The translations under genes and the position numbers were made by a program. DNA of 64,000 nucleotides. Source: an uncultured Planctomycetia bacterium (GTDB taxonomy: Bacteria > Omnitrophota > Gorgyraeia > Duberdicusellales > Duberdicusellaceae). Within the stretch, counting starts at the first letter, position 1. Each line of letters begins with the position of its first letter. The notes beneath the pieces are model-generated. The model worked only from the letters and a program-made list of their open reading frames with translations, had not been told where the DNA came from and did no database searches. The stretch lies in NCBI GenBank assembly GCA_964634935.1, contig CAZWJT010000007.1, positions 77,808-141,807 of the forward strand, written 5' to 3'. Positions 13,348-33,900 of this stretch are shown here, in pieces.

Positions 13348-13370
13348 CAGGCTGAATTTTTCAGATAATT

Positions 13371-16465: not shown

Positions 16466-18304
16466 ATGAAACAACGCGGAATATTCTTTTTCTTGCCTAT
16501 TCTTATTTTTTTTGTTTATTCCAATACTCTCTGGAGTTCGTTTCATTTTGACGACATAAGTTCCATCGTCCAGAATTACGCCATTAAAGATATTTTTAAT
16601 CTAAAAGCTATCTGGAATTTCTGGCCTACGCGCTTTATAACTTACTTTTCTTTCGCTTGGAATTATCATTTTCATCAATTAGACGTTTTTGGGTATCATC
16701 TTCTGAATATCATAATCCATATTCTTTCTTCGTTCTTTGTTTGGCTCCTTGCGCTTCTTGCATGTCAGCTAGAGCGTGTTCAGGACAATGGAAGCAAACT
16801 ATTTAAGGATTATCGATACCCTATCGCTTTTTTTGCTTCTGCCGTTTTTGCTCTTCACCCAATCCAAACCCAAGCAGTAACGTATATCACTCAGCGGGCG
16901 GTTTCGTTGTGTGGGCTTTTCTGTCTTGCTTCAGTATTTTTCTATTTGAGATTTCGATTCTTACGGCTTACCGGGGCGAATTGGTTTCCTACGCGAATAT
17001 CCTACTTTTTGTCATTGCTTTGTGGCGTGTTCGCGATGTTTACTAAGGAAATAGCGATTATCTTGCCAATCGGAATCGCTCTATGTGATAAGCTTTTTGT
17101 GCGGCAAAAAACAGAAAAAAATACCTATCTTTTCTTGCCTTTTGTGTTATTGTTTTTTATCATTCCCGTTACTTTTTCTCTTACCCGGAGCCTAGACTAT
17201 TCGGCTTTAAAGCGGATATCCGAAGGAGTAGAACTTCTGAGTCCTTGGGAATATTTTTTCACAGAGCTGAGAGTTATCATAACCTATCTCAGACTTTCTT
17301 TTCTGCCAGTTGTTCAAAACCTTCTGTATGATTATCCAGTACAAAAAGATTTATTTTCAGTTTCTGTCTTGAGTGGTATTGTCCTTGTTATCGCGAGCAT
17401 TCTTTTTGCGCTGAAATTCATTCGTAACTATCGGCTGATGAGTTTTGGGATTTTCTGGTTTTTCTTGATGCTTCTGCCGGAATCCAGTTTTATTCCAATC
17501 CAGGATCTCATTTTTGAACATCGGCTGTATCTCGCTCTTTTCGGGTACGCATTGTTTTTTGTAAGTGGCATATTCTATCTAACTTCTTCTCGGCGAATAT
17601 TTCTTGGAAAGCTGTTCTTATTCGCGGTTGTTCTTTCCTATGCGCTTCTTGCCTATAACCGTAATGCAATATGGCAGAATGAAATTACCCTCTGGAGTGA
17701 CGTTATCGCTCGGTCGCCTCGGAACACAGCGGGCTACACAAACAGGGGGATTGCGTTCTTTAGACTTGGTTCTTTTCAAGAAGCCTTGGCGGATTTTGGG
17801 CGGACACTGGAAATAGATCCAAAAAACGTCCAGGCCTTTGTAAACCGGGGGGTTATTTATTTTTATATTGGTCGTCAGGATTTGGCTTTGAAAGATTTCA
17901 ATCGAGCGATTCGCTATTTACCATTTATTTCCGGCGATGAAACAAAGAGCGACGCCTATACAAAACGCGGGGTAGTTTATTTTTCTCAAGGTAATTACGG
18001 GAAGGCTTTGAAAGATTTCAATCGAGCGTTGGATATTTATTTTGCTAATGCCGAAGCATTATTTAATAGGGGATCTCTGTTTGCCAGAAGCGCAGAATAC
18101 AAAAAAGCAATTGGAGATTTTACGATTGCTTTGCGACTGAATCCGGATTATGCCCAGGCTTATTATAACCGCGGTTATGCCTATTATTTATCCCGAGAAT
18201 ATGCTGCAGCCTACTCTGATTTCCGGAAAGCAGCGGATTTTGGCATTCTTGTGGATAAGTCTATGATGGATGAAATAGGAAAATATGGACAGATTGGGAA
18301 ATAG
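16466..18304 (+). CDS. TMTC-like GT-C membrane protein with C-terminal TPR repeats
   Basis: The polytopic N-terminus has a 'HFDD' DD-loop after TM1. At least six C-terminal TPR units carry a repeated 'ALKDFNRA' consensus. Confidence 0.55.
   Translation: MKQRGIFFFLPILIFFVYSNTLWSSFHFDDISSIVQNYAIKDIFNLKAIWNFWPTRFITYFSFAWNYHFHQLDVFGYHLLNIIIHILSSFFVWLLALLACQLERVQDNGSKLFKDYRYPIAFFASAVFALHPIQTQAVTYITQRAVSLCGLFCLASVFFYLRFRFLRLTGANWFPTRISYFLSLLCGVFAMFTKEIAIILPIGIALCDKLFVRQKTEKNTYLFLPFVLLFFIIPVTFSLTRSLDYSALKRISEGVELLSPWEYFFTELRVIITYLRLSFLPVVQNLLYDYPVQKDLFSVSVLSGIVLVIASILFALKFIRNYRLMSFGIFWFFLMLLPESSFIPIQDLIFEHRLYLALFGYALFFVSGIFYLTSSRRIFLGKLFLFAVVLSYALLAYNRNAIWQNEITLWSDVIARSPRNTAGYTNRGIAFFRLGSFQEALADFGRTLEIDPKNVQAFVNRGVIYFYIGRQDLALKDFNRAIRYLPFISGDETKSDAYTKRGVVYFSQGNYGKALKDFNRALDIYFANAEALFNRGSLFARSAEYKKAIGDFTIALRLNPDYAQAYYNRGYAYYLSREYAAAYSDFRKAADFGILVDKSMMDEIGKYGQIGK
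17884..18028 (+). repeat. 25-nt perfect direct repeat (GGCTTTGAAAGATTTCAATCGAGCG) at 17884-17908 and 18004-18028 inside TPR units
   Basis: I read it directly from the sequence. It reflects a recent duplication of a TPR unit. Confidence 0.7.
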
Positions 18305-20425: not shown

Positions 20426-21205
20426 ATGCCAGAAGCAGATCCAAGAGTTTCCGAGAAAGAAGCGCATATTGCTCTCTGTAATCATAAGTTTAAAGAAGCG
20501 TTTTTATTTTATGAGCAAGCAGGGGAGGGATATGCCGCAGTGCATGATTTTCGTCAATCTGCACTTTGTTTTGCTGCCGCAGCAGGGGCATGGATTAAGG
20601 AGTGCGGAGAACAACGATTTCTGAATGCCGCATTATTTTATCGTAAGGCGGCAGAGCAAGCAGAGCGTTCTTCGGATTTCGAATACGCTGCCTTATTGTA
20701 TCAGAATGCCGCGATTAATTATGAGCGTGATGGTGATTTTCACAGCGTTTCAGAATGCTTTTATCGTTCCAAGGAAGCAAGAAGGAAGTTTCTTTTTTCC
20801 TGGTTGTTTTTCAGGATTTCCCTCGATGCTACTGTAACAAAGCAAAAAGCAAAAGGAGCGATTTTCTGGATCCAATCATTTCTTCTCTGGTGTTTGTATG
20901 GTTGTTCTTCGCTCATATGGGGGCACGGTGAAAGGCCATTTCGAGCATTTGTTACTGCGATAGGGCTTATTGTTTCCTCCACATTTTTTTATATGCAAAC
21001 AACACTGGAAAGCTCCGGAAAGATTTTTAGCCCCTCATTTGGTCAGGCATTTTATTTCAGCATTGTTACGTTTACAACTGTTGGGTATGGAGATATGTAT
21101 GCGGTTGGCGTCGGTAAAGCAATGGCGATGATCGAGGCTCTTTGTGGTGTTTTTCTTAGTTCTATCTGTATCGTTGCTCTTTCGCGCAAATATTTACGTG
21201 CCTGA
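20426..21205 (+). CDS. two-TM potassium-channel pore protein with N-terminal TPR-like cytoplasmic domain
   Basis: The 'TVGYGD' selectivity filter sits between two TM helices. The N-terminal ~150 aa are helical and rich in A/Y/E. Confidence 0.6.
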   Translation: MPEADPRVSEKEAHIALCNHKFKEAFLFYEQAGEGYAAVHDFRQSALCFAAAAGAWIKECGEQRFLNAALFYRKAAEQAERSSDFEYAALLYQNAAINYERDGDFHSVSECFYRSKEARRKFLFSWLFFRISLDATVTKQKAKGAIFWIQSFLLWCLYGCSSLIWGHGERPFRAFVTAIGLIVSSTFFYMQTTLESSGKIFSPSFGQAFYFSIVTFTTVGYGDMYAVGVGKAMAMIEALCGVFLSSICIVALSRKYLRA

Positions 21206-21255
21206 ACTTCACTTTGGTTTCAGCAGATGGGTGTGCTTACAGAGAAAGGAGATAT

Positions 21256-21384
21256 ATGGATTTTTTAAAAAAAATTATCGTAATTGCCGCGCTTTTGTTT
21301 GGTGTTTATCTGTTGGCGAAAAAATTTATCTTTCCGACAGTTGATCCTTTTATGAAGCAAAAGGTTCATTTTACAAATTATTGA
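21256..21384 (+). CDS. small hypothetical membrane protein (42 aa)
   Basis: A strong RBS, AAAGGAGATAT, precedes the ATG. The product is 'MDFLKKIIVIAALLFGVYLLAKKF...'. Confidence 0.3.
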   Translation: MDFLKKIIVIAALLFGVYLLAKKFIFPTVDPFMKQKVHFTNY

Positions 21385-21455
21385 AATTTCTTGCCTTCAA
21401 AATGTTCTGTGTTATAATTCTTTCGTATTTTTTGAAACTTATTGAGCTTTCTAAT

Positions 21456-21528
21456 GCCGAGGTAGCTCAGTCGGTAGAGCGAGGGACTGAAAATCCCTGC
21501 GTGGGGGGTTCGATTCCCTCCCTCGGCA
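21456..21528 (+). tRNA. tRNA-Phe (GAA)
   Basis: The acceptor stem is GCCGAGG/CCTCGGC. The D-loop is AGTCGGTAG. The anticodon loop is CTGAAAA. The T-loop is GGTTCGATTCC. The discriminator is A. No CCA is encoded. Confidence 0.85.
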
Positions 21529-21538
21529 TTTCTAGCAT

Positions 21539-22018
21539 ATGCCAAAAAAAAATTCGCTTCCTCTTGTTCTAGATCTTCTGCTTCATTTCTTTTCCACCTT
21601 ATTTTTTGCCGGATTTATATATTATTCAGGGGGAAGTTTTTCTTTGATTATCGCTGTTCTCTGCGGCGGTATTTTCATTGATTTAGATCATTTTCTTGAT
21701 TATATGCTTTATTATCGTTTTCGATGGAATTTCCAAGATTTTATTGAGACGCGGTTTCTTCTTTCCGGAAAAGTTTATGTGATTCTGCATGGCTGGGAAA
21801 TTGTTTCGGTATTTCTCATTCTCGGAATTTTTCTCAATTCTGCATTCTTAATAGTTTTTTCGAGCGCCATGGGAATGCATATTTTTATTGATCACATCCA
21901 ACGGTATAATCCGCTTTTCTATTTCTTGTCCTATCGAATCTTTCACCGCTTCTCAGTCGAACGGATTGCTCCTGAACTATTGAAAAAATTTTCTGCTATA
22001 CAAAATTCCGCCGAGTGA
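21539..22018 (+). CDS. membrane-bound metal-dependent hydrolase-like protein (DUF457/YdjM-like)
   Basis: It has four TM segments. The 'IDLDHF' and 'HIFIDH' motifs are present. Confidence 0.4.
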   Translation: MPKKNSLPLVLDLLLHFFSTLFFAGFIYYSGGSFSLIIAVLCGGIFIDLDHFLDYMLYYRFRWNFQDFIETRFLLSGKVYVILHGWEIVSVFLILGIFLNSAFLIVFSSAMGMHIFIDHIQRYNPLFYFLSYRIFHRFSVERIAPELLKKFSAIQNSAE

Positions 22019-22033
22019 TTTTTGGTTTATGTT

Positions 22034-23425
22034 TTATCCGTTTTCTTGGGTAAGTAAGCGGGGGATAGAACTGGGATTAAATTTTTGCGAGGGGAAACAT
22101 TCTCTCCAGACTGATTCTGTCTCCATGCAAAGATAGAGCGGTGTTTTTGCGTCATAAGCTCGTATAATTTTTATCATATGCCGGTACATTTCAACGCGTA
22201 AAAAATCCGGGTACCGCATTTTTTTGTCTTTGCCTAACAGTAACTCTCCATACTCGATCCGACTTCCAGGAAATCGTTTTTCGATGATTCCCTTTAAATC
22301 CCGGTGGAATCGAAGCGTGCCAAGGCTGATCCAGGCAAAGGGTGGCCTGAGGTTCAAATAAATTTTCTCAATCACCCGTTGATATGCTTCTTGCCAGCCG
22401 GAAAAGTAAATAATCGGGTCAAAGTGAAACCCGATAGAAAAGCCATGGTTTTGTACGATTTGAGCAGCATTGATCCGTTCCGCGAGCGGTGCAGTGGATA
22501 ATTCTTCACGGATTACGAAAAATTCGGGATTTACTGACCAGGAGATTACTATATTTTTCGAAGGCTTTTCAGTAATAATATTTTCAATACAAGCACTTTT
22601 TGTTTTGAGTTCAAAGAATACGTTTTGTTTTGCGAAAAACCTGATTAATTCTCGAGAATAGAGAGTAAAACTGTCAAGCGCGAGGGAATCGCAGAATTCG
22701 CCTGTGCCAATTCTTATCGCGGTTTTTTGGTTTTTTAATACACCGGCTGTCCGACGAATAAAATCGTTCATATTAGCTGGCAGAATTATGCCTGGAAAAT
22801 TTTGATAGTGCTGCAGGTAGCAATATGAGCAATCAAACGGGCAACCGAAGCCGAGATTGAGGATGAAATATCCGCAGCGTATGTGCTGCTTAGTGCACGG
22901 GCAGGGTTTAAAGAAGTCCCAGATTTCTTTCACGATAAACAGGAGTGGTTTCTTAAGGTTTTCCGAATTGAAAGTCAGTTCCTTGCGCAGCGGAGCTATC
23001 TGATTAACGTAGATAATCGGGATTTTTGGGAAATAATCTTTTGCCCGATGAGCCAAAAATGAATCTTTTGCGTTTTGTTCGATAAATATTTGCTCTGGAA
23101 TAAATGGTTTCTTTGGGTGGTAACTGTTTTGGTGCGATTCAGAGATTGCATTCAAGAATAACGAGTCGGATTTGATTTCTTGGCGGGCGCTGGTTAGAGG
23201 ATAACGTATATGGATTAACGATTTTTTTATGCGAGAAAATAAATCGTTGTTTTGTATTTTTTTATCGCCAAAACTTTTTTTTATTTGGTTTATTATGTTC
23301 TGTGATGAGCAGGGCGTAATTTTTTCAATTTCATAAAGCAATCTGGATATTTCTCGGGTTTGGTTTTTGTTAAAACGTACCGAAAATGATTTTTCTATTT
23401 CTCGGGTAAAGATATTTTGATTCAT
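22034..23425 (-). CDS. radical SAM protein, SPL/SplB-like (COG1533-like) with an N-terminal extension
   Basis: 'GFGCPFDCSYCYLQ' is a CxxxCxxC motif in SPL-like context. The ~150-aa N-terminal extra region has no recognizable motifs. Confidence 0.5.
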   Translation of the reverse strand: MNQNIFTREIEKSFSVRFNKNQTREISRLLYEIEKITPCSSQNIINQIKKSFGDKKIQNNDLFSRIKKSLIHIRYPLTSARQEIKSDSLFLNAISESHQNSYHPKKPFIPEQIFIEQNAKDSFLAHRAKDYFPKIPIIYVNQIAPLRKELTFNSENLKKPLLFIVKEIWDFFKPCPCTKQHIRCGYFILNLGFGCPFDCSYCYLQHYQNFPGIILPANMNDFIRRTAGVLKNQKTAIRIGTGEFCDSLALDSFTLYSRELIRFFAKQNVFFELKTKSACIENIITEKPSKNIVISWSVNPEFFVIREELSTAPLAERINAAQIVQNHGFSIGFHFDPIIYFSGWQEAYQRVIEKIYLNLRPPFAWISLGTLRFHRDLKGIIEKRFPGSRIEYGELLLGKDKKMRYPDFLRVEMYRHMIKIIRAYDAKTPLYLCMETESVWRECFPSQKFNPSSIPRLLTQENG

Positions 23426-24318
23426 TGTTTTCGGTAGTATTCTATTATTCTTTTCGTTTCTTCTTCAATCTTCTGGGCCTTTGTTTTGTCCCTTTTCTGA
23501 AGGCCACGAATATAGATATTTGTTTTTTCTTGAAGGACTCGGAGCGCGGCATCGCGGTAGTTACGTTCCAGAAGCGGGTCAGCAATGATTTTTTTGATAG
23601 CCTGGATTCGGTATTGGTCCAGGGCGGGTATTCGCTTTGACTGCTGGTCAAAGCGGCCTCCTTCCTTAATGGTAAGATAGAGAGGAATATGTTTGACTGG
23701 GAATACCGCGGTTACTCGTAACCAAAATTCATAGTCTTCACAGGCAGGCAGCTGTTCATCGAATATTCCAATCTGCGCGAAAACATCTTTTTTGATACAC
23801 GCCGTCGATATGCTGATGGAGCAAATTTTAAGCGCTTCCTGAAAAATATTGCCGTCGGGTTTTTTATGTTTTTTGTGTTGCGCGAGGAAGCAGCCGTTTC
23901 TGTACCAAATTTCTTCCGTATGAAATACCCGATAAGTTGGGTAGCGGTGGATAAATTCATGGGTTTTTGCGAGTTTCTCAATGCGGAATCGATCGTCTGA
24001 GTCCAAGAAACAAATGAATTTCCCATGCGTATTTTTAATGCCAAGATTTCGCGCCGCGGCCGGCCCTCTGTTGTTTTGATGAAAGAAGCGTACGCGTTGG
24101 TCATGGATCGAACTGAGATATTTTCCGGTTGCGTCGGTTGAGCCATCATCTATTATTAAAAGTTCAAAATCCGTGAAGTTTTGTTCCAGCACAGATTCGA
24201 CCGCCACCTTCAGCAATGGCTGACGATTGTAGGTAGGAATAATCACCGAAAAGAACGGCTGTAAATCAATCATAGCGGATTGCTGATGAATAAAAATTGT
24301 TAAATTCGGGGATGACAA
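23422..24318 (-). CDS. glycosyltransferase family 2
   Basis: 'FSVIIPTYNRQPLLKVAVESVLEQ...LLIIDDGSTD' is the canonical GT2 N-terminus with a DxD-type motif. Confidence 0.7.
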   Translation of the reverse strand: MSSPNLTIFIHQQSAMIDLQPFFSVIIPTYNRQPLLKVAVESVLEQNFTDFELLIIDDGSTDATGKYLSSIHDQRVRFFHQNNRGPAAARNLGIKNTHGKFICFLDSDDRFRIEKLAKTHEFIHRYPTYRVFHTEEIWYRNGCFLAQHKKHKKPDGNIFQEALKICSISISTACIKKDVFAQIGIFDEQLPACEDYEFWLRVTAVFPVKHIPLYLTIKEGGRFDQQSKRIPALDQYRIQAIKKIIADPLLERNYRDAALRVLQEKTNIYIRGLQKRDKTKAQKIEEETKRIIEYYRKQ

Positions 24319-25117
24319 AACGAACGATCGGTTGAGCGTTTGTCAGTTTTGATAGGATCATTTCTTTTTTTCTTGCGACAAACGAAAGAAATGAATCGTT
24401 CGAAACGTAGTTTTTTTCAACGTCATTTGCGTATTCATCCTGGTTTTGTTCTCGGAGACGCCGCAGTAACAAAGGTAAGTTGCCCATGCGAGCGTTAAAA
24501 AACTCGACCTCAAAACTACTATTTGAAAGCGGGCTGTTTTCGAGGACGTAATTGCATGAGTCAAATACGGAGAGCAATGGACTGATATGTATTACCATTT
24601 TGATCTGCGCATTAGAGATTTCCTTTAACGTTTTTACCCTCTGCTCGAGAGAAGGGCTTTTGGGTTCGAGAATCGGTAAAAGCGGTTTAGGTGCGCAAGG
24701 GAGCGTAAAAAATATTTTATTTTCTGGGTGATAGGTAAGCAGTGCTATGTATTCTGAAATAAGAGGAGAACGGGTGAGTATCGCACAGGGAATGTTGTGA
24801 TCTTTTAGGATTTTTAAAATGCTTTCAGTCACACGAAATTTCTGTTCTACAGGCTGGAAACATTCTGTGGTTGAGCCAAGTAATATTTTTTTTGGTTTAT
24901 AGAGGTTTATTTCGCGTTCGAGAATTGGCTCAATGTTTTCTTTTATTTCTACAAATTCACCCCACGGTTCATTTTGTTTCTTTGCGCTTTTATTGGACTG
25001 TGCATAGCAATATAGGCAGCCAAAAGAACAGCCTCGGTAAGGATTAATGACGAAATCTGCAATGCTAATTTGTGTGGGAGAAAGAATTTTTTGCGACTTG
25101 ATTTTGCGAATGGTCAT
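24266..25117 (-). CDS. SPL-family radical SAM protein
   Basis: 'NPYRGCSFGCLYCYA' is the spore-photoproduct-lyase-family CxxxCxxC signature. Confidence 0.55.
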   Translation of the reverse strand: MTIRKIKSQKILSPTQISIADFVINPYRGCSFGCLYCYAQSNKSAKKQNEPWGEFVEIKENIEPILEREINLYKPKKILLGSTTECFQPVEQKFRVTESILKILKDHNIPCAILTRSPLISEYIALLTYHPENKIFFTLPCAPKPLLPILEPKSPSLEQRVKTLKEISNAQIKMVIHISPLLSVFDSCNYVLENSPLSNSSFEVEFFNARMGNLPLLLRRLREQNQDEYANDVEKNYVSNDSFLSFVARKKEMILSKLTNAQPIVRFVIPEFNNFYSSAIRYD

Positions 25118-26387
25118 AGAGATTGTCGATAAACGATTTTTTATGTCGTATTTTTTCCTTTAAGATAAAATCCACAGCCTTCCGAAGTCTTTTGCGTAAG
25201 TGTTTTTGTGGATGCCACGGAACAGGCGTTTTCATTATATCACTTGCCGGATAGGGGACAAAACAATTCAGTTGCGCTATTTTCGGGATGATTTTCTTGT
25301 TTTCCTTAAGGAAGGCAAGCGTTTCTTGGAAATGAAAATCATCTTCGCCGGGATACCCAACCATCAGGCTTATCTCAAAGAATATTTTTTCTGCGATTAA
25401 GTTCTGAAACATGCATTTTGCATCTTCTTTCTGAAAGTATTTTCCCATTTTATTGAGTATATAATTTGAGCCTGATTCAAGTCCAAGAAAGATATTGATG
25501 CAGCCACTTTTTTTTATGAGTTTTAAGATATTTCTATCCATGTCTGGGCGGATAATCATCTGGGCTTGCCATTTTAAATCTAATTTCCTCCGGTTCAGTA
25601 ACTGACAAAATTTTTCCAGCCATGAGATGTTGAAGTTTAAGAGTGAATCATGAAATGTGAAATTCGAAACGTTGTATTTTTTCGAAAGATATTCCAGATG
25701 GTCTACGACATAGTGCGGAGAATGAAACCGAAATGCTGCTGTCAGGTTTTTTTCAGCACAAAACGTGCATTTTCCAATGCAACCACGGCTTGCCAGAAGC
25801 GCGATTGTTCTGTTGTATCGTTCCGGTTCAATTGAAGAAAGATTTAAGAAAGGAAGCGTGTCGAGATTTTCTATCTCTTGATGCAGATACATTGTTTGTG
25901 GTCGCGGTTTTTCTAAAATATCGAGGAGCGGTTTTTCTCCTTCTCCGATGACTTGAATGCCGCGTTCAAATAGCGCTCTATTGTTCTGGTGATATTGCCA
26001 GAGTATTTCTGGTCCGCCAAAAATTATCCTTGGTGATCCGCAGTGAGCGATTTTCTCCGCAAGCGCGAGAGAGAAGCTGAGATTTCTTCGAGAAAGAGAG
26101 AAGCCGACAAAGCGGTATTTTCTGGCTTTTCTGGAGAGTTCATGAATGTAATATGGAAGTTTATTTTTTGTTTCCGTGAATACATTGTTCTCAAAGGCAC
26201 TGTTTAGGGTATTCCAGTGGAACTTTAGGTGTGGCATGTGTTTTACGATCACGCAGTTTATATCCTGAACGTCGAAGGAAATTTTTTTGTGTTTTAAGAA
26301 ACTTTTAAGGTACGCTATGCTCAGCGGAGGGGTAGAAAGCGGGTGTGGCGGGCAGAGAAGGAGTAAGAAATCCTTCATTTCTTTCAT
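25065..26387 (-). CDS. B12-binding-domain radical SAM protein (class B)
   Basis: The N-terminus is a Rossmann-like, B12-binding-like domain. 'ASRGCIGKCTFCAE' is a CxxxCxxC motif. Confidence 0.6.
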   Translation of the reverse strand: MKEMKDFLLLLCPPHPLSTPPLSIAYLKSFLKHKKISFDVQDINCVIVKHMPHLKFHWNTLNSAFENNVFTETKNKLPYYIHELSRKARKYRFVGFSLSRRNLSFSLALAEKIAHCGSPRIIFGGPEILWQYHQNNRALFERGIQVIGEGEKPLLDILEKPRPQTMYLHQEIENLDTLPFLNLSSIEPERYNRTIALLASRGCIGKCTFCAEKNLTAAFRFHSPHYVVDHLEYLSKKYNVSNFTFHDSLLNFNISWLEKFCQLLNRRKLDLKWQAQMIIRPDMDRNILKLIKKSGCINIFLGLESGSNYILNKMGKYFQKEDAKCMFQNLIAEKIFFEISLMVGYPGEDDFHFQETLAFLKENKKIIPKIAQLNCFVPYPASDIMKTPVPWHPQKHLRKRLRKAVDFILKEKIRHKKSFIDNLYDHSQNQVAKNSFSHTN

Positions 26388-26441
26388 TCGGAACGTTCGG
26401 TTTGTTTTTGGCTAGATTATGTAAAAAGAAGTTAGAGTTTA

Positions 26442-26846
26442 TTAAAGTTCGTTGATTCCAACCGGCGTTAACAGAAAAGTTTTCCTACCCAAAGAGCCGG
26501 CAGGTGTGGCTAAGACATCGTACCATGTTTCATTGGCAATGCAGTCAAATGAGTGTCCTGACGTAATATTGCCTCCGCAGGCGGAGGATCTTAGGTAGCC
26601 TTCTGTCACCAAATAGTCGAAATCCGAGACTTCCCCCCCAGGAGTGAAGCGACCTCCAAAATCAGATGCGTAGTTTTCCAGGGCGGTTTGCATGGCTTTT
26701 AACCTGACCTTCGTTGAAGAATCATTCGCTGTTTTTTTGGCAGAGATCATTACTGGCACCGAGACTGACACAAGTAACGCGAGGATTGCGATAACAATCA
26801 TTATTTCAATAAGGGTAAAGCTTGATCTTCTTTGCATCTTTACCAT
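26442..26846 (-). CDS. prepilin-type N-terminal cleavage/methylation domain protein (pilin/pseudopilin-like)
   Basis: 'SSFTLIEIMIVIAILALL' has the class III signal-peptide architecture with E at +5. Residue -1 is Ser rather than the usual Gly. Confidence 0.65.
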   Translation of the reverse strand: MVKMQRRSSFTLIEIMIVIAILALLVSVSVPVMISAKKTANDSSTKVRLKAMQTALENYASDFGGRFTPGGEVSDFDYLVTEGYLRSSACGGNITSGHSFDCIANETWYDVLATPAGSLGRKTFLLTPVGINEL

Positions 26847-26947
26847 GATTCTTTTTAATTTTAAAATATTTTACCATAAATCGCCATAAGTACTATAAAA
26901 AAAAACTACTTGTGGTACGATAAGAGCAGAAAAGCGTATTTGTAATT

Positions 26948-28081
26948 ATGAAAATTTCCTTGTATCTCCATATTCCGTTTTGTAGCAAAAAATGTGCGTA
27001 CTGTACGTTTTATAGTATTCCGTATCACAGGGATACCGCTAAGCTTTTTATTCAGGTTCTTTGTCGGGAAATCAGAAGGCTCGAAAGCCAGAACTTTCAA
27101 TGTTCAACGATTTATATCGGCGGAGGAACTCCGTCGATTCTGGATTCTGATCTCATTGAAAAGCTACTGGAGCATCTTTCTAGATTCCTTGTAAGCAGCA
27201 AGGAGAATACCATTGAGGTTAATCCAGAGTCTTTCGACTTTCACAAGGCATCATTGTATCGTTCATACGGTTTAAACCGAGTCAGTATCGGAGTACAGAC
27301 TTTTTGCGGCGCGCAGTTAGCTCTTTTAGGGAGAAAGCATTCTTCACGGCAAGCCCAAGAGGCGGTAGCCGCTTGTGTGCAAGCAGGATTTAAGAATATC
27401 AGTGTTGATATGCTTTGTGGTTTACCAGGAAATTTTCAAAAAGACCTGGAAAGTCAATTTCAGGTAATAGTCAAAGCCCCCATTACTCATATTTCCTGGT
27501 ACATGTTATCGTGTGAAAAAGGTACTGAGTTATTTAGGAAGGTGAAAGCAGGCGGTATCCGTTTACCCAACGAAGAAGATGCTGTATGCCAATATTACTT
27601 TGGCCTTGATTTCCTAAAAAATAACGGTTTTCAGCATTATGAGATTTCTAATTTTGCCAAGAATGGTTTTTTGTGCCAGCATAATCTTTGTTACTGGAAT
27701 AAGCAGGCATATGTAGGGTTGGGGCCTTCTGCGGTGTCTTATCTGAATGGCCAAAGAGAACAGAGAGTTGCTTCGGTTGAGGCCTACATACGGAGAGCTC
27801 ATCGGAACGAATCAGTTATTTCCTGTTCTGAAAAACTGAGTTCTTTGCGCCAAGCCCGTGAATATGCCGCAATTTCCATACGAAGAATAGCCGGCATTGA
27901 TTATAAGGATTTTGAGGAAAAAACCTCCTTTGCTTTTGAATGTATCTATAAGAATGAAATATCTGTTTTACGAAAGCAAGGGCTGATTATTCCCAAAAAA
28001 CACAAACGTCTTACGTCTGGAGTTTGTTTAACGAGAAAGGGGATTATTTTCTGTGATTTTGTTTCACGAACACTTGTTTAA
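26948..28081 (+). CDS. hemW: radical SAM heme chaperone HemW (HemN-like)
   Basis: 'HIPFCSKKCAYCTF' is a CxxxCxxC motif. The HemN_C-like C-terminus is present. The protein is about 377 aa. Confidence 0.8.
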   Translation: MKISLYLHIPFCSKKCAYCTFYSIPYHRDTAKLFIQVLCREIRRLESQNFQCSTIYIGGGTPSILDSDLIEKLLEHLSRFLVSSKENTIEVNPESFDFHKASLYRSYGLNRVSIGVQTFCGAQLALLGRKHSSRQAQEAVAACVQAGFKNISVDMLCGLPGNFQKDLESQFQVIVKAPITHISWYMLSCEKGTELFRKVKAGGIRLPNEEDAVCQYYFGLDFLKNNGFQHYEISNFAKNGFLCQHNLCYWNKQAYVGLGPSAVSYLNGQREQRVASVEAYIRRAHRNESVISCSEKLSSLRQAREYAAISIRRIAGIDYKDFEEKTSFAFECIYKNEISVLRKQGLIIPKKHKRLTSGVCLTRKGIIFCDFVSRTLV

Positions 28082-28153
28082 AAACGATATTTATTCGGTT
28101 TTGGTTCATTGACTTTTTTAGTATTGTCTTTATACTACTTTTAGGAGCAAAAA

Positions 28154-29299
28154 ATGCGCATTTTTTGGATCACTGTCTTTATTTTTCTACTTTTCGGATT
28201 TTCTACTTTTCTTCCTGCAGAACAGAAACATGAACTACATGTTTTTTATTCTGAGCACTGCCATGCGTGCATCAAGGTAAAGAAAGAAATAATCCCTCGA
28301 ATAGAAGAACTCTATGGGGAGAAGGTTTCTGTTGTTTTTCTCGAGATCAGCAATCCACAAAATTTAAGCCGTCTCTTGGAAATAGACAATTTAGTCGGCG
28401 CGGCAAAGCCATTCGTTCCTACCATAGTTATAGCCGATAAGGTTTTTATTGGAAAAGATAGTATTGAGCAAGAGCTCCTTCCGTTTCTCGACTCCTTCCT
28501 TACAATGCCACGGCGGACCTCTTTCACGGCAACTTCGCCTATTGACTTGCAGGAATATTTCAAAAAATTTTCTGTACTCACTATTCTTGGAGCTGGCCTC
28601 ATCGATGGAGTTAATCCTTGCGCCTTTACGGTCATAGTTTTTTTTATCTCTTTTCTTACTTTTTACGGCTACAGCAAAAAAGAGCTTGTTTTTATCGGAA
28701 GCGGGTATATCCTTTCAGTCTTTTTAAGTTATCTTCTGATTGGTCTGGGGCTTTTTAAATTTCTCTATGCGTTGTCGGCTTTTTATTTCATCATCAAGAT
28801 TTTTTACTGGTGTATTGCGGGGTTGTGTTTTACCTTGAGCATTTTTTCTTTCTACGATTTTATAAAATTTAAGAAGACCAAAAACCCCGAAGAGTCTTCC
28901 TTAAGACTTCCGGTATTCTTCAAGCAGGCAATTCAGCGTTTTATCGGGAAAAGCTATCGGGGAAGGAGTCGCAAGGCAAATACTATCATCCTTTTCTTGG
29001 GGACTTTTGCGATAGGCGCAGTTATTTCTCTACTGGAAGCAGTATGTACAGGTCAAGTGTATCTACCAGTCATTACGTTTATCATGCGGGTTCCGGAGCT
29101 GCGGGTAAAGGCATTCTTTTACTTTTTCTTATACAATTTTATGTTTATCGTTCCGCTGATTCTTGTTTTTCTCTGTGCATTGTGGGGAGCTACATCGGAA
29201 GATTTTTCGCGCCTTATGAAGCGGTATTTTGGGACGATCAAGGTTTTAATGGGGATTCTGTTTCTAATTTTGGGAGGAGTTATGGTATGGGGCGTATAG
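28154..29299 (+). CDS. thioredoxin-fold (CxxC) domain fused to a CcdA/DsbD-like transmembrane thiol-disulfide transporter
   Basis: The signal/TM segment is followed by 'EHCHAC' in a Trx-like ~110-aa segment. The polytopic domain carries 'GVNPCAF' and 'AVCTGQ', which are membrane-embedded Cys residues typical of CcdA/DsbD. Confidence 0.5.
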   Translation: MRIFWITVFIFLLFGFSTFLPAEQKHELHVFYSEHCHACIKVKKEIIPRIEELYGEKVSVVFLEISNPQNLSRLLEIDNLVGAAKPFVPTIVIADKVFIGKDSIEQELLPFLDSFLTMPRRTSFTATSPIDLQEYFKKFSVLTILGAGLIDGVNPCAFTVIVFFISFLTFYGYSKKELVFIGSGYILSVFLSYLLIGLGLFKFLYALSAFYFIIKIFYWCIAGLCFTLSIFSFYDFIKFKKTKNPEESSLRLPVFFKQAIQRFIGKSYRGRSRKANTIILFLGTFAIGAVISLLEAVCTGQVYLPVITFIMRVPELRVKAFFYFFLYNFMFIVPLILVFLCALWGATSEDFSRLMKRYFGTIKVLMGILFLILGGVMVWGV

Positions 29300-29634
29300 T
29301 TTTTCTTTGGTTTTTATTCCTGGGTGTTTGTTTTGCAGAAAACGCGGACGTGAATGTTCTTGAGTTTAAATTCGGCGAAGTAATAGCGGGCGAACAACTT
29401 GAACACGTTTTTGTACTTCCGCGAGTGCGGGTTATTTCTTCTGTAACTTCATGCGAATGCATTTCATTACATTTTCTTGAGCGCGAAAATGCAACCCTGG
29501 TTAAACTCAAGTTCAATACGGCAGATTACTCAGGAGCAGTCGAACACTATGGTTTCGTAGCTACCGATAAGGGCAACTTCAAGCTTACCATTACTGCCTG
29601 GGTATTTTCAGGGGCTCTTGACGAATCCTCATGA
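29287..29634 (+). CDS. secreted DUF1573-like (Ig-fold) protein
   Basis: There is a signal peptide. 'FKFGEV..G......F...RVISSVTSCEC' resembles the DUF1573 'SCGCT' region. Confidence 0.4.
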   Translation: MGRIVFLWFLFLGVCFAENADVNVLEFKFGEVIAGEQLEHVFVLPRVRVISSVTSCECISLHFLERENATLVKLKFNTADYSGAVEHYGFVATDKGNFKLTITAWVFSGALDESS

Positions 29635-30896
29635 ATCTTCCTTTTCTTGTTTGTGCGGATAGCCGCGGAACTATTTATATTCATCCTTCCTTGCGTGTTG
29701 CGGCAAAAGCGTGGGATGTGTTTTGCGTTCCTTCCACTGCTGATTTTATCCCTGCCCCTGAAGGAACAATTTTTTACTATCTGCCAGGGCGTAATCCTGT
29801 GGGGTTTCATCGGGCAAGACAATCGTTTGAGCATGTTACGTCTTTCCATGGACGGAAGGTATTCGCGGTTTCTGCCTTTCTTCCCCCGGCGTATCTACGC
29901 CTTTATCATCCGGCCTGCTCTGTAGAAAAGTTTCAAATTCTTCCTCTTTGGAATTACATCGCTGCTGGCTGGTATGCGGGAAAATTTTATGTGGCAGCGC
30001 TGCGTATTGACAAAAAACTTCGGCAGAGCCCCCGGTTTTACAGAAATAGGCACTTACTTATTCAGAATATTGCTTCTATGCGCCGATTGTTTTCAAAGAA
30101 TCGTTTACTTCAGCATTTGTCTTTTTGTGCCTTGCGCTATAACTGTCTTGCTGCACAGAATTTCTTCTTACAGCGGTGGGAAGCTCCACTTCCGTGCTCT
30201 CCAGCATGCAACAGCAGGTGCATCGGTTGTTTATCGCTCCAGAAGGATTTTTGCGCTTCTCATGAGAGGATTTGTTTTGTGCCGACCGTTGAAGAAGTAT
30301 CGCAGCTTGGCATTTTTCACTTAAAAAGGGCATCAGAGGCAATCGTAAGTTTTGGGCAGGGTTGCGAGGGGGAACCTCTTTTAGAGGAGGATTTACTCGT
30401 TCATTCGATCCGGGCGATGCGGCAAGCGACATCGAAAGGAACGATCCATATGAATACAAACGCAAGCCGTCCTAAGAGCGTTGAACGGGTGTGCACCGCC
30501 GGGATTAATTCGATACGGGTTAGCTTAAATAGCGCCCGAGAAGATTCATACTGCCGGTATTTTAGGCCAGTTGGATATACTTTTTCCGATGTACTGGAAT
30601 CAATACGGATAGCCCGCAAGAAGAAAGTTTTTGTTTCGGTTAACCTCCTGACGTTTCCCGGATTTACCGATAGCTATCAGGAGGCAGAGGCTCTTTTTAC
30701 GTTTATCGCCAGAGCTGATATCCAGATGGTCCAGATGCGCAATCTCAATATCGATCCGGAGTATTATATGAGAACATTGCAGTGCAAACCAGGAAGTTCA
30801 ATGGGGATGCGTACGTTGGTGGCGCAGTTGCGCAAAAAATTCCGCCGGTTGAAAATCGGTTACTTTAATGTAAGCCGGAGTGAATTTGCTGGTTAA
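29631..30896 (+). CDS. radical SAM domain protein (function unknown)
   Basis: 'CNSRCIGC' is a CxxxCxxC motif. 'GQGCEGEPLL' is a GGE-type SAM motif. An N-terminal ~180-aa domain is of unknown function. Confidence 0.5.
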   Translation: MNLPFLVCADSRGTIYIHPSLRVAAKAWDVFCVPSTADFIPAPEGTIFYYLPGRNPVGFHRARQSFEHVTSFHGRKVFAVSAFLPPAYLRLYHPACSVEKFQILPLWNYIAAGWYAGKFYVAALRIDKKLRQSPRFYRNRHLLIQNIASMRRLFSKNRLLQHLSFCALRYNCLAAQNFFLQRWEAPLPCSPACNSRCIGCLSLQKDFCASHERICFVPTVEEVSQLGIFHLKRASEAIVSFGQGCEGEPLLEEDLLVHSIRAMRQATSKGTIHMNTNASRPKSVERVCTAGINSIRVSLNSAREDSYCRYFRPVGYTFSDVLESIRIARKKKVFVSVNLLTFPGFTDSYQEAEALFTFIARADIQMVQMRNLNIDPEYYMRTLQCKPGSSMGMRTLVAQLRKKFRRLKIGYFNVSRSEFAG

Positions 30897-30992: not shown

Positions 30993-33900
30993 ATGAATAA
31001 AAATCTACAGGACGAAAAATTTTCTGCTTTTCTGGATCCTTTTACCGGCGCCTACAACCGCAGTTTCCTTTTTCATATCTTGCCTGAAAAAATAGAAGAG
31101 ACGAAAACCAAAAAACAAAAATTTGCCCTTTTCATGATTGATTTGGATAATTTTAAGCACGTCAACGATACCTATGGGCATCTTGTAGGCGATAAAGTTC
31201 TTCGTGATATCGCGATGGTAATGCGTAAAGCATTGCGTGAACATGATTTTTTAATCCGTTACGCCGGAGACGAATTTTCGATTATCTTGAGTGATATTGA
31301 TTTACCAATTGTCTATAAGGTCGCCGACCGCATCTTAGAAGAGGTGCGCAGTATGAAGATTCAGACTGACCGGGGAGTGATTCAGCAGACGCTGAGTATG
31401 GGTTTTTCCCTTTTCCCGGCGGATGCAGAAACCCAGGATGCTTTAATCGATTGCGCGGACCAGGCGCTTTATCTTGCGAAAAAACGCGGTAAAAATAGTT
31501 ATGCTTCTTTTAAAGAAGTTGACATCAGCAACATCAGTCTCGAGGCCGGAATGCGTTTTTTCCCCTGCGCAAAATTTGTCGATAGAAAAAATGAGGCAAA
31601 GCTCGCTCACGACAAAGTTGCTCGGTGTGCGAAAGGTGGAAAGCTAGGAGGTATTATTGTTGTTGGAGAAACCGGCATCGGGAAAAGCCGTTTCCTGAAA
31701 GAGACTTCGCTCAGCGCAAGCGCGAGCGGCATGGAGGTTGTTTCTTTCGGGGCTTATTTGAAAAACAGTCTTGCTCCGTATTTTTTCTTGGTGCGTATTT
31801 TTGAAGATTATTTAAAGCAACGTGACGATTCGAATGGAACTTTTTCTCAAGAGATTATCGGGTCGCTCGAGAAGAACCAAAGAGAGATACTGAAGTTTTT
31901 TCTTCCTAAGATAGGGAAATCATCATTGAATGACCGGGATATTATTCGTGATGTTTCCGCGGTTTATGAAACATTTTCCTGTTTTCTTGCCGCTGTGATT
32001 CAGAAAACAGGAAAGCCGATATTTCTCTCCATTGATAATACGCAATATATCGATAATCATTCCTTGAAGTTTTTCTCCTATATCTTAAACAATAAGAAAA
32101 ATCTCAATATCCTGCTCTGGCTTTCGTTCGTTTATCCACTTCCACAGGGAGTATATGATATTAAGCTGACCGAGAAGTTTCTGGAAGATTTGAAGACCAT
32201 TCCTGAAATTTCAATCGTTCATCTGACAAATATTTCCGCTGGCGATACCCGTGATATGATTGCGGCTATTTTCTCCGGACTTGAGCATAACGAAGAATTT
32301 TGCCATTTGGTTTTTGAGATTACCAAAGGAGTTCCCTTTTTTATTGAGGAACTTTTAAAGTTTCTTTTGGAAAACTCCTGTATTTATTTTGAAAACAATG
32401 AGTGGCAGTTTAAGAATCAGATGAAAGATTCAATTCCCCGATCGCTTGAAGAGATCATTCGAACCCGGTTAAAAAGCCTCGATCCAGAACTTCGTGAAGC
32501 GATCCTGATTTCTTCGGTTATTGGAGAGGATATTAAGCCTGAAATTCTAAGCCAAATCCGCAACGCCAAGGAAGGTGATATCCTAGAGCTTCTTGATAAA
32601 GCGAAAAAGCTGAAGTTGGTTGGCGAGGAAAGCGGCAGTTTTAATTTTTTGAATGATACGGTTCGTAATGTGGGTTTGAGTGAAATACCTGAGGCCCGGC
32701 GGAAAACTATCTATCATAAGGTTTCAGATGTCTTATTTAATTACTACCGGGATAATCTAGAAAGCATGACGTCACAATTTATCGCGATGTTCAAGAAGAC
32801 CGAGAATATGGAGCAGCTGAGGAGTTTCACTGATATCGTTACTCAGAAGTCATCAGAGGTATTCCAGCCAGACCTTATTCTAAAATATTTGGAAGAAGTG
32901 CGTAAAGAAGATTCTGGTACGACTGCGGAACTTGAACAAATGGCTTCCCTCGACGAAACGCGGCTTCCTGAAGTCGTAGAAATTCTGGCAATTTTTCAGG
33001 GGGCAATGAAGAACTTTCGGTTATATCCCAAGGGCAGTAATTTACGAGAAACAATCTTAGAGAAATTTTTAAATACCTTAAAGAAAAATCTTGAGCGTTA
33101 TGGTCTCATCGTTATTTCAGAGGCTGAGAAATCGCTCGTTATTAATGATAAGCGCATTCCGCCTCGGGTTGCGAAAGGCATTGATTTGGACGCTATCGCA
33201 AAAATACTCATTAATAGGAATATCAAGTATATTTCTTTTGGGCGCGAGGTAACAAAAGAAGAGCTTGAGAAGTTTTTCGAAATTGTTTCGCTTGATCCTG
33301 AGATGCTTTTGGCTAACGGAGGATTTAACAAGTTACTTTCTGACCAGGGCATCGTGAATGTTACCGCAAAAAAAGGCGTCTATTCTCCAATCTCACGAGA
33401 TACGCCCGCAGGGGGAAAAGTGCGAGATAAGGTAGAGAATATGATGGTGCTTGATTTTATTCTCGGTAAAGTATCGGGGAAGGATCTGCAAAGTTCACAA
33501 CTTGCGGATGCGCTTATGAAGAACCCCAACCTCCTTTCGCAGCAGTTTCTCGACGCGGTGGAGTCGGCCCAAAAGATCGATCAATACTCGGATAAAATTG
33601 ATATTCTCTCGCAAAGCCTCTCGAAATTATATAATTTAGCAGATTTGGTTGAATCTGGAAAGATTACCCCGGAGCAATTAGGTGCGAACAAGGAAAAAGA
33701 AGCCTCCCCAGATGTAAAAGAAATTACTGATGAGCAGAAGGAGAAAAAAGTACCCGATGCAAGTTTCGTAGAGTCAGAAAAAACAAACAAGGAACCAGAG
33801 AAAAAACAACCGAAAAAGATTGTTTCCGAAGAGAAGAAAGAGATGAAGGTTGCGGAATCTTCTGAGGCGTCCGCTGAAGCAAAGATGCGAAATCTTGCCG

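Follow-up and report, generated by a model that had tools for sequence, protein, structure and literature searches.

A conserved cassette of radical-SAM enzymes and a glycosyltransferase in Omnitrophota, tentatively linked to the tailoring of an envelope glycoconjugate

What might a glycosyltransferase be doing among three radical-SAM (rSAM) enzymes in a member of the Omnitrophota? The question is raised by a minus-strand cassette in a 64,000-nucleotide stretch of contig CAZWJT010000007.1 (the window), which the original prediction described as three rSAMs around a GT2 glycosyltransferase, probably forming one operon that modifies a lipid or glycan rather than repairing DNA. We found no description of this cassette in the literature. 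All four open reading frames and their families were recovered, head to tail:

25065..26387, minus strand: class-B-type B12-binding rSAM (B12-rSAM), 440 aa
24266..25117, minus strand: small COG1533/SplB-type rSAM, 283 aa
23422..24273, minus strand: soluble GT2 glycosyltransferase (GT-A fold), 283 aa
22034..23425, minus strand: rSAM enzyme with the spore photoproduct lyase (SPL) fold, 463 aa, the core gene of the system

Gene calls on a 147,470-bp NCBI contig give these same products, with lengths of 440, 283, 283, and 463 aa. The longest reading frame of the GT2 reaches a TTG at 24318 (23422..24318), and its start is most likely the ATG at 24273, which gives a 283-aa protein identical to the NCBI call (P0132). 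With this start, the overlap between the GT2 and small rSAM genes is the 8-nt ATGATTGA and not 53 nt; the remaining overlaps of 4 nt (ATGA) and 53 nt agree with the range of 4 to 53 nt proposed at the outset. The overlapping stop and start codons, together with a gene order repeated in many genomes, establish the four genes as one operon. The CxxxCxxC motif is present in all three rSAMs (CIGKCTFC in the B12-rSAM, CSFGCLYC in the small rSAM, and CPFDCSYC in the SPL-like enzyme), so the absence of the cluster from the two SplB-like proteins, which the original prediction had named as a possible objection, was not observed.

Profile searches upheld the family assignments. The B12-rSAM consists of an N-terminal B12-binding domain and an rSAM core (Radical_SAM, 49 bits); the B12-binding match is sub-threshold in this protein (19 bits), and PF02310 was matched in 20/20 of its orthologues (best E 1.4e-11). 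No NCBIfam equivalog cutoff was reached by this protein, the best being the PhpK family (109 bits vs 600). The small rSAM matched Radical_SAM at 40 bits and fell under every curated cutoff, including those of the PA0069 family (102 bits, cutoff 360) and of mobile-pair B (93 bits, cutoff 410). It shares its core with PA0069, Rv2578c, and "radical SAM mobile pair protein B" (COG1533, "DNA repair photolyase") at E 1e-20 to 1e-29, along with a GxxTExxQP-type strand after the cluster, and differs from them in being specifically paired with a B12-rSAM. To our knowledge, these families are themselves uncharacterised. Its similarity to SPL is remote (TIGR04070, E 6e-4, 19 bits; hhalign against the SPL-like family, 94.5% probability, E 8e-8). 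By sequence comparison, we therefore class it as a COG1533/PA0069/mobile-pair-B type protein remotely related to SPL, and the "SPL-family" label first given to it is valid only in a broad sense. The B12-rSAM and the small rSAM are paired in Omnitrophota, and the same pair occurs in Brocadia and Elusimicrobia with neither the GT2 nor the SPL-like gene. The cassette is composed of two separable modules, a GT2 and SPL-like core and a B12-rSAM and small rSAM accessory module.

The core is widespread: at least 579 species genomes, most of them from Omnitrophota, encode a member of the SPL-like family. In 51 of 78 loci, the next gene upstream of the SPL-like gene, in the same orientation, is an orthologous GT2 (43-59% identity, median gap -10 nt), and the two genes are fused in two loci (L002, protein P0074, and L023); a fusion of the small rSAM with the SPL-like enzyme was also found (P0063). 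Gene order is conserved across genomes, as the original prediction had suggested examining, with the string B12-rSAM, small rSAM, GT2, and SPL-like enzyme contiguous in 13 loci and interrupted by insertions in six more. The fusions and the adjacency in 51/78 loci are strong evidence for a functional link between the GT2 and the SPL-like enzyme.

The GT2 matched PF00535 (Glycos_transf_2) at 111 bits and has the invariant motifs DDGS, DSDD, and CEDY. Its predicted structure (pLDDT 92.7) was closest in the PDB to K4CP, WrtF, SpsA, TarS/TarP, and AvpGT (Foldseek E ~1e-15 to 1e-17), with which it shares the GT-A fold, the DxD motif (DSDD), and the ED motif. The GT2 differs from these enzymes in sequence (17-24% identity), carries conserved HTEEIWYRNG and TIKEGGxxDQQS motifs that set it apart, and has a C-terminal three-helix extension. 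The substrates of these structural relatives range from polymers and oligosaccharides to a nucleoside (AvpGT), so the comparison does not narrow the class of acceptor.

The SPL-like enzyme is related to SPL in sequence and fold. It matched PF20903 (SPL) in Pfam at 95 bits (gathering score 27) and the sequences of SPL structures in the PDB at E 1e-13 to 1e-24, and its AF2 model (pLDDT 86) aligned to SPL with a Foldseek E of 2.5e-18 and a TM score of 0.79 (normalised to SPL). Features of the enzyme are as follows:

23111..23425, minus strand: family-specific five-helix N-terminal domain (residues 1-105)
22874..22903, minus strand: CPCTKQHIRC, with C175, C177, and C184 invariant in 80/80 sequences
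22820..22843, minus strand: CPFDCSYC, the radical-SAM [4Fe-4S] motif (C195, C199, C202)
22127..22129, minus strand: C433 in a YLCME motif, the fourth extra cysteine, invariant in 80/80 sequences

With SplB of Geobacillus and Bacillus (PDB 4FHC, TIGR04070), the enzyme shares a cluster followed by YC(Y/F)LQ and invariant equivalents of Tyr96 (Y201) and Arg273 (R372), the latter of which contacts the lesion phosphate in SPL. Identity between the two is only ~20%, and the scores against TIGR04070 (92 bits, cutoff 400) and TIGR03886 (36 bits, cutoff 438) are far below those of true SPLs. The Cys/Tyr radical relay, proposed as a check, was not intact in the 80-sequence alignment, where an invariant Glu takes the place of Cys140 and 43/80 sequences have Phe in place of Tyr98. 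An invariant R404-Y405 adjoins a short predicted beta-hairpin tipped by an invariant Asp; the SPL hairpin is long and carries Arg304-Tyr305 at its tip. Unlike SplB, the enzyme has a GT2 or a nucleosidase as its partner and occurs in non-sporulating candidate phyla. We thus rejected the enzyme as a true SPL, in agreement with the original view that neither SplB-like protein is a DNA-repair SPL and that such proteins occur outside sporulating Firmicutes.

The N-terminal extension that had been noted is real and is shorter than the ~150 aa first estimated; alignment to solved SPL structures starts at residues 103-106, so it spans ~105 aa. The model places helices at residues 3-13, 20-36, 41-52, 59-74, and 76-81, with N21, E32, R74, and P76 invariant. 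The domain had no Pfam match, and a search of 1.8 billion representative sequences returned only 11 matches, all N-terminal in proteins of 79-464 aa, which are probably fragments or members of the SPL-like family. The four additional invariant cysteines (C175, C177, C184, and C433), which SplB lacks together with this domain, likely form a second metal or Fe-S site. In an alignment to 4rh0, the C140A/S76C mutant of SPL, C175 lies within one residue of S76, the hydrogen-donor position of clostridial-type SPL.

Genes near related loci provide some indication of the substrate. In 11/76 loci, the next gene downstream in the same orientation is dgkA (PF01219; median gap -11). The GT2/SPL-like pair of locus L066 lies between an upstream GT4 gene and a downstream gene for a PgsA-like CDP-alcohol phosphatidyltransferase, and in L012 the SPL-like gene has a 4-nt overlap with a candidate hldD-like epimerase gene, recognised by sequence inspection. 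A convergent lpxC-fabZ/lpxA/lpxI/spoIID block is found downstream in 20-30 loci. Only occasional co-transcription with such genes and synteny with lipid A genes favour the lipid or glycan substrate named originally. Our leading reading, which we hold tentatively, is that the locus is a two-module biosynthetic operon for radical tailoring of a glycosylated lipid or glycan of the cell envelope.

The following scheme, including its acceptor, step order, and chemistry, is our inference. The GT2, which is coupled in translation to the SPL-fold enzyme and forms a single protein with it in some genomes, would transfer a sugar from a nucleotide sugar to a membrane-associated acceptor (a lipid or lipid-linked glycan). 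The SPL-fold enzyme would then cleave SAM reductively at its CPFDCSYC cluster to yield a 5'-deoxyadenosyl radical that might rearrange or cross-link the glycoconjugate, possibly assisted by the N-terminal helical domain and the second Cys4 site. Where the B12-rSAM and small rSAM are present, they may modify the product further, for example by C-methylation or another rearrangement. A similar logic, in which a glycosyltransferase acts first and an rSAM then contracts the ring of a lipid head group, is found in hopanoid cyclitol-ether synthesis by HpnI/HpnJ and in the route to calditol by Cds (PMC13459092). Cds, an archaeal enzyme (Sulfolobus, GDGT) that remodels a head group installed by a glycosyltransferase, is comparable in concept. 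The operon, the non-SPL character of its core enzyme, and the link to the GT2 were borne out from the original interpretation; its substrate and its proposed chemistry (methylation or C-C coupling) are retained here as suggestions. Several observations count against this glycoconjugate reading. The lipid genes are co-transcribed in a minority of loci only and convergent synteny is weak evidence, the fold of the SPL-like enzyme is otherwise known to us only from a DNA-acting enzyme, and R372 and Y201 are invariant. Transmembrane segments are absent from all four proteins.

A distant subgroup, in which a PNP-type nucleosidase replaces the GT2 as adjoining partner, is not explained by a simple glycolipid model and raises the possibility of an adenosylation pathway resembling HpnH/HpnG/HpnI/HpnJ or MqnE/MqnB, which we regard as unlikely. 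The SPL-fold enzyme would attach the 5'-deoxyadenosyl radical at an sp2 carbon in a lipid or metabolite, and the nucleosidase would strip adenine from the adduct. The ribosyl extension left behind would be glycosylated by the GT2, and the B12-rSAM would contract or methylate the sugar. A PNP_UDP_1 protein is indeed encoded directly upstream of the SPL-like gene on the same strand in 9/78 loci (median gap -34). It is also upstream in L065 of the Endomicrobiales, and in L067 of the Fibrobacterota it forms one fusion protein with the SPL-like enzyme. In L076 of the Auribacterota, the string of nucleosidase, SPL-like enzyme, B12-rSAM, and GT2 matches the enzyme classes of hpnG, hpnH, hpnJ, and hpnI, three of which are present in the window. 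This likeness is not orthology, since the hopanoid family cutoffs are unmet (HpnJ, 69 bits vs 578; HpnG, the top NCBIfam match of the L065 nucleosidase, 29.7 bits vs 187; HpnH, no match), the rSAM of the present system adopts the SPL fold, and a COG1533 rSAM is additional; the window showed no squalene or hopene genes. A nucleosidase is missing from the neighbourhood of most Omnitrophota loci, this one among them. A nucleosidase also accompanies the B12-rSAM and small rSAM module where the SPL-like gene is lacking, which fits a generic removal of inhibitory 5'-deoxyadenosine. We know of no SPL-fold enzyme that transfers an adenosyl group.

The SPL fold and the invariant R372, Y201, and R404-Y405 could instead point to modification or repair of nucleic acids, in which the enzyme would act on a flipped-out DNA or RNA base and the GT2 would glycosylate the modified base or nucleoside. 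A spread across the phylum might suit a housekeeping modification enzyme, the GT2 has a nucleoside-binding structural neighbour in AvpGT, and candidate TrmH/SpoU-type RNA methyltransferase-like genes were noted by inspection near L065 and L075. The proteins are also basic (pI ~9.3), though this is a property of all proteins in this low-GC genome. The absent Cys140/Tyr98 relay and the short, Asp-tipped hairpin argue against this role, domain searches detected no nucleic-acid-binding domain, and operons that also contain a B12-rSAM, dgkA, and pgsA are difficult to reconcile with it. We consider it quite unlikely.

Two genes upstream of the cassette bear on a further alternative:

26442..26846, minus strand: type IV pilin/pseudopilin-like gene (N_methyl motif; weak GspG and PilA matches)
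26948..28081, plus strand: HemW, an rSAM-family heme chaperone (TIGR00539, 255.6 bits, cutoff 205.4)

Some RiPP clusters combine rSAMs with a GT2, and the pilin-like gene, which shares the strand of the B12-rSAM gene and precedes it by 54 nt, is possibly co-transcribed with the cassette. The cassette might therefore glycosylate and radically cross-link a pilin or RiPP, with the N-terminal helical domain recognising the peptide. The pilin-like insertion was found in this genome only; in related loci HemW, a conserved syntenic neighbour lying divergently upstream in 21-28 of them, directly abuts the B12-rSAM gene. This pattern, the housekeeping-like conservation of the module across the phylum, and the failure to see a conserved small precursor reading frame make peptide tailoring very improbable. 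A genuine SPL with unrelated neighbours, suggested by the Pfam match and by source records annotated, for example, as "spore photoproduct lyase", is scarcely credible given the scores, the Glu at the Cys140 position, the added N-terminal domain and Cys4 site, the fusions with GT2, rSAM, and nucleosidase, and hosts in Omnitrophota.

Two convergent features lie downstream of the cassette:

21539..22018, plus strand: orf159, a 159-aa multi-pass membrane protein, a conserved downstream neighbour in 11 loci
21455..21529, plus strand: tRNA-Phe(GAA), a lineage-specific synteny marker outside the system

The first of these had no Pfam or NCBIfam match. The distance of about 500 nt to the tRNA was correctly predicted (505 nt); it separates the tRNA from the 3' end of the minus-strand cassette, with orf159 between them, and not from its beginning. 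No integrase was seen. A convergent tRNA-Phe was found downstream in 7 of the 26 related loci checked, and its proximity is a matter of lineage synteny only.

All four open reading frames lie on the minus strand at exactly the coordinates of the original prediction, and their products are all gene calls on the NCBI contig (147,470 bp). The four genes in 5' to 3' order, followed by a tRNA gene beyond them, are:

25065..26387, minus strand: B12-binding radical SAM enzyme (B12-rSAM), 440 aa
24266..25117, minus strand: small COG1533 radical SAM enzyme, 283 aa
23422..24318, minus strand: glycosyltransferase family 2 (GT2) enzyme, longest open reading frame, 298 aa from TTG
22034..23425, minus strand: spore photoproduct lyase (SPL)-like enzyme, 463 aa
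21455..21529, plus strand: tRNA-Phe(GAA), 505 nt past the 3' end of the cassette

Because the NCBI gene call for GT2 is 283 aa long, its start is most likely the ATG at 24273, which overlaps the stop of the small radical SAM gene by 8 nt (in ATGATTGA). The overlaps at the other two junctions are 4 nt (SPL-like gene with the GT2 stop) and 53 nt (small radical SAM gene with B12-rSAM gene), so the outer values of the proposed 4 to 53 nt range hold and only the GT2 overlap is revised. Similarly, the proposed distance of about 500 nt to tRNA-Phe is right, if measured from the 3' end of the cassette and not its beginning. Other long open reading frames in the window are almost all on the plus strand (nearly all of the 53 of at least 150 aa, with GC skew positive throughout), and the cassette is therefore a minus-strand island. 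Together with a pilin-like gene it forms a block (22034..26846) that is essentially the sole long minus-strand one in the window. Promoter and terminator consensus scans across 21200..27200 gave results no better than shuffled sequence.

The B12-rSAM has a Radical_SAM core in Pfam with the cluster motif CIGKCTFC. Its B12-binding domain is below the Pfam threshold in the window protein (19.1 bits vs 32.1), and among its orthologues both PF02310 (E<=0.01, best 1.4e-11) and Radical_SAM match 20 of 20. On its sequence, the 440-aa protein is a class B radical SAM enzyme with a predicted B12-binding N-terminal domain and a radical SAM core. Its top NCBIfam matches are all class B families, every one far under its cutoff; no curated equivalog (PhpK, HpnJ, the ladderane-type TIGR04072, BchE, BzaD) was reached, the best scores being 109 bits vs 600, 69 vs 578, and 80 vs 360. 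The small radical SAM enzyme (cluster motif CSFGCLYC) belongs to the COG1533 group and falls under the cutoffs for PA0069 (102 bits vs 360), mobile pair B (93 vs 410), Rv2578c (73 vs 430), and every other family of this type. These matches indicate a homology that is real at the superfamily level only. It is also a remote homologue of the SPL-like enzyme (hhalign 94.5%, E 8e-8), and some of its relatives have a Pfam SPL match and carry the JGI label 'DNA repair photolyase'. The assignment of GT2 is unambiguous, with 111 bits to PF00535 (threshold 23.3), invariant DDGS (D42-D43), DSDD (D91-S-D93-D94), and CEDY (E179-D180) motifs, and a predicted GT-A fold (pLDDT 92.7). The proposed identities of these two enzymes, B12-binding radical SAM and GT2, were thus borne out. 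The label of SPL/SplB family for the other two enzymes needs qualification: the SPL-like enzyme passes Pfam SPL and stays under the SPL equivalog cutoff, and the small enzyme is of the COG1533 group.

The SPL-like enzyme matches PF20903 with 95.3 bits over residues 108-394 (gathering threshold 27), scores 91.9 bits against TIGR04070 (cutoff 400), as expected if it is not a bona fide SPL, and 36.5 bits against the SPL-family model TIGR03886 (cutoff 437.6). A sequence comparison with the PDB matched it to Geobacillus SPL entries alone, with residues 103-395 aligned. An AlphaFold (AF2) model built from 35 homologues (pLDDT 86, pTM 0.89) matches SPL (4rh0, 4fhc) with E 2.5e-18 and TM 0.79, and generic radical SAM enzymes rank next. 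Five helices in residues 1-105 are absent from SPL, and the N-terminal extension is about 105 aa long instead of the about 150 aa put originally. This segment has no Pfam match, and a search with it alone against 1.8 billion representative proteins gave 11 matches, all N-terminal, which probably come from the SPL-like family itself.

We evaluated conservation in an alignment of 80 SPL-like family members from several phyla. The cluster cysteines of CPFDCSYC (residues 195-202) are invariant in 80/80, and, with CSFGCLYC in the small enzyme, both SPL-like reading frames of the original prediction have the CxxxCxxC cluster. Four more cysteines are invariant in all 80 members (C175-P-C177-x6-C184 and C433). 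The first of these, C175, falls at or one residue off Ser76 of Geobacillus SPL, depending on the alignment; at Ser76, the position of the alternative, clostridial-type hydrogen donor, mutant 4rh0 carries an engineered cysteine. C175 also belongs to the CxCx6C...C set, which resembles a metal site, and a second metal site in the SPL-like enzyme is probable from this pattern. By comparison, the published SPL structure has only four conserved cysteines (PMC3467042). The SPL-specific Cys/Tyr pair for radical transfer was not recovered: the position of the Cys140 hydrogen donor is E243, a Glu in 80/80 (the nearby C245 is Cys in 55/80), and that of the Tyr98 relay (residue 203) is Phe in 43/80 and Tyr in 37/80. 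The SPL-like enzyme therefore has the SPL scaffold and SAM site without the SPL radical relay.

Full-length homologues of the SPL-like enzyme that include the N-terminal domain number in the thousands, and the named ones are nearly all from Omnitrophota; by such homologue names the host of the window is itself Candidatus Omnitrophota. With one genome scanned per species, the family turned up in at least 579 genomes, again mostly Omnitrophota. Distant members (39-43% identity) occur in MAGs labelled Endomicrobiales, Fibrobacterota, Auribacterota, 'Spirochaetes', and Chlamydiota. The family is a large, sharply conserved sister of SPL within the SPL/COG1533 radical SAM superfamily.

Gene neighbourhoods were counted in 80 fetched loci. 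An orthologous GT2 gene (43-59% identity) lies immediately 5' of the SPL-like gene on the same strand in 51/78 (median gap -10 nt). The same four-gene order as in the window is contiguous in 13 loci, and six more have it with one to four genes inserted. Proteins that fuse GT2 to the SPL-like enzyme were found twice (P0074 from locus L002, and L023), and the SPL-like enzyme is also fused to the small radical SAM enzyme (P0063) and to a PNP_UDP_1-type nucleosidase (Fibrobacterota L067). From these fusions and the translational coupling we make a strong case that GT2 and the SPL-like enzyme work in one pathway. The B12-rSAM and small radical SAM pair occurs in turn without GT2 and the SPL-like gene, in Candidatus Brocadia (an anammox planctomycete of the Planctomycetota; L084, 6553..8846) and in an Elusimicrobia locus (L086, 6700..10395) where a PNP_UDP_1 gene follows. 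Since the modules occur separately in other genomes, the window cassette combines a core module (GT2 and SPL-like) with an accessory module (B12-rSAM and small radical SAM). The PNP_UDP_1 gene of L086 is flanked by two 96-aa GIY-YIG reading frames that may be mobile-element remnants.

The nucleosidase is a recurrent partner of the SPL-like enzyme. In a distant Omnitrophota subgroup (9/78 loci, median gap -34 nt), DUF362-ferredoxin and PNP_UDP_1 genes are found upstream in place of GT2. The order is nucleosidase and then SPL-like gene in Endomicrobiales (L065), and nucleosidase, SPL-like, B12-rSAM, and GT2 in Auribacterota (L076). Seven loci of the distant Omnitrophota subgroup (L070, L072, L073, L075, L079, L081, L083) have, ahead of the nucleosidase and SPL-like genes and upstream of the match at about 10001, a gene for a DUF362 protein with two 4Fe-4S ferredoxin motifs; this ferredoxin-type protein may be a dedicated electron donor to the radical SAM cluster.

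Several neighbours hint at the substrate. The lipid kinase gene dgkA overlaps the SPL-like stop codon in 11/76 loci, and a convergent lpxC-fabZ/lpxA/lpxI/spoIID block is downstream in 20-30 loci. In one locus (L066) the GT2/SPL-like pair has a GT4 gene on its upstream side, and the gene downstream of it encodes a PgsA-like CDP-alcohol phosphatidyltransferase (93.6 bits, slightly below the cutoff of 109.1); in another (L012) an hldD-like epimerase, identified by sequence inspection alone, overlaps by 4 nt. Because lipid and envelope genes are sometimes co-transcribed or syntenic with the cassette, we favour an envelope lipid or lipid-linked glycan as the substrate, which would be glycosylated first and then radically remodelled. 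HpnI/HpnJ and the glycosylation-then-Cds route to calditol offer parallels (PMC13459092). Our preference is weak because none of the four cassette proteins has transmembrane segments, the structural neighbours of GT2 include enzymes for polymers, for oligosaccharides, and for a nucleoside and so point to no single acceptor class, and lipid genes accompany the SPL-like gene in a minority of loci only.

In a rather unlikely alternative, the SPL-like enzyme would transfer an adenosyl group and the nucleosidase would trim the product. The nucleosidase partner, including the fusion, recalls HpnH/HpnG and MqnE/MqnB, two pathways with an adenosyl-transferring radical SAM enzyme whose product is trimmed by an enzyme of the PNP family, and each of the four enzyme classes of hpnG, hpnH, hpnJ, and hpnI is present in L076. 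Against this reading, the nucleosidase is also found with the accessory module alone, which fits mere removal of inhibitory 5'-deoxyadenosine, and no HMM cutoff for the hopanoid pathway (HpnG/H/I/J) was reached, nor was a squalene-hopene cyclase found among the annotated window ORFs. As a speculation to which we give little credence, an SPL-fold enzyme that is adenosyl-transferring or otherwise C-C bond-forming, and not hydrogen-abstracting, could act with GT2, B12-rSAM, and a dedicated PNP-type nucleosidase to build a membrane lipid, not seen before, that has a ribosyl or cyclitol extension. Such a route would be the counterpart, in Omnitrophota, Elusimicrobiota, Auribacterota, and Fibrobacterota, of the bacteriohopanepolyol side-chain pathway without being homologous to it. 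To our knowledge, SPL is the sole enzyme of its fold whose reaction is known; if the adenosylation or C-C-bond reading were true, it would add a second reaction type for the fold and could provide a new lipid biomarker for these uncultured anaerobes.

A nucleic-acid substrate for the SPL-like enzyme is similarly doubtful. It would suit the SPL fold, the invariant Y201 and R372 (equivalent to SPL Tyr96 and Arg273), and the invariant R404-Y405. SPL has a long base-flipping hairpin with Arg304/Tyr305 at its tip (PMC3467042), whereas the predicted hairpin of the SPL-like enzyme is short (strands 396-397 and 402-404) with an Asp in its G-K-D-K tip; R404-Y405 is off this tip, and the HMMER alignments end before the hairpin region. 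Genuine SPL activity is unlikely despite the scaffold, as the lost relay residues, new N-terminal domain, extra cysteines, and glycosyltransferase and class B partners all argue against photoproduct repair. Of the original proposal of lipid or glycan modification instead of DNA repair, the second half is supported as regards photoproduct repair and the first is favoured weakly. Tailoring of a pilin or RiPP and a role in phage defence are both unlikely: the pilin-like gene is missing from related loci, and in PADLOC the SPL-like protein and GT2 had no match and the other two radical SAM enzymes weak generic matches only.

Our literature search found no description of the cassette or the SPL-like family, and database labels for such radical SAM proteins are 'spore photoproduct lyase', 'DNA repair photolyase', or 'radical SAM protein'. 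The finding corrects a widespread mis-annotation under the first two names. With its new N-terminal domain, probable second metal site, and tie to GT2 or a nucleosidase by adjacency and gene fusion, the SPL-like enzyme is a testable target for new chemistry in radical SAM enzymology. The cell biology of Omnitrophota and neighbouring candidate phyla is almost unknown, and the cassette suggests an unrecognised glycoconjugate or lipid, which may be a core feature of their envelope.

Other genes near the cassette were also evaluated. HemW (26948..28081) is divergent and upstream in 21-28 loci, with the accessory pair present or absent; it passes the HemW equivalog cutoff (TIGR00539) and was treated as a syntenic neighbour only, not as a fifth pathway member. 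The tRNA-Phe gene is downstream in 7/26 loci checked, all close relatives, which is lineage synteny; no integrase or integrated element was seen that would make it an integration site. The pilin/pseudopilin-like gene (26442..26846, minus strand) lies between HemW and B12-rSAM, 54 nt upstream of the cassette, and encodes an N-terminal methylation motif with weak GspG and PilA matches. It was found in the window only, which suggests that it was inserted into the divergent promoter region in this lineage.

A stretch of 9 kb (22034..30896) contains five radical SAM genes, namely the three of the cassette, HemW, and a 421-aa enzyme (29631..30896) with an N-terminal extension of ~190 aa and weak MoaA and BlsE-like matches only, whose position beside the cassette is not conserved in other genomes. 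The convergent neighbour of the SPL-like gene (21539..22018, plus strand) encodes a protein of 159 aa that crosses the membrane several times and has motifs rich in His/Asp (DLDHFLDY, HGWE, HIFIDH); it occupies this place in about 11 genomes and has no Pfam or NCBIfam match. A 381-aa protein (28154..29299, plus strand) resembles DsbD/CcdA in having a thioredoxin-like CxxC segment at its N-terminus and several membrane helices towards the C-terminus, with no Pfam match at E<=1e-4. The 1418-aa protein at 30993..35249 (plus strand) has an N-terminal GGDEF diguanylate cyclase and an AAA_16 ATPase, followed by ~1000 residues without a domain match. The upstream part of the window holds what looks like a glycan biosynthesis region (11974..18304, plus strand):

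within 11974..18304, plus strand: DUF7033 protein
13371..15311, plus strand: AsnB-type asparagine synthase
15308..16396, plus strand: UDP-GlcNAc 2-epimerase
16466..18304, plus strand: 612-aa membrane protein with C-terminal TPR repeats
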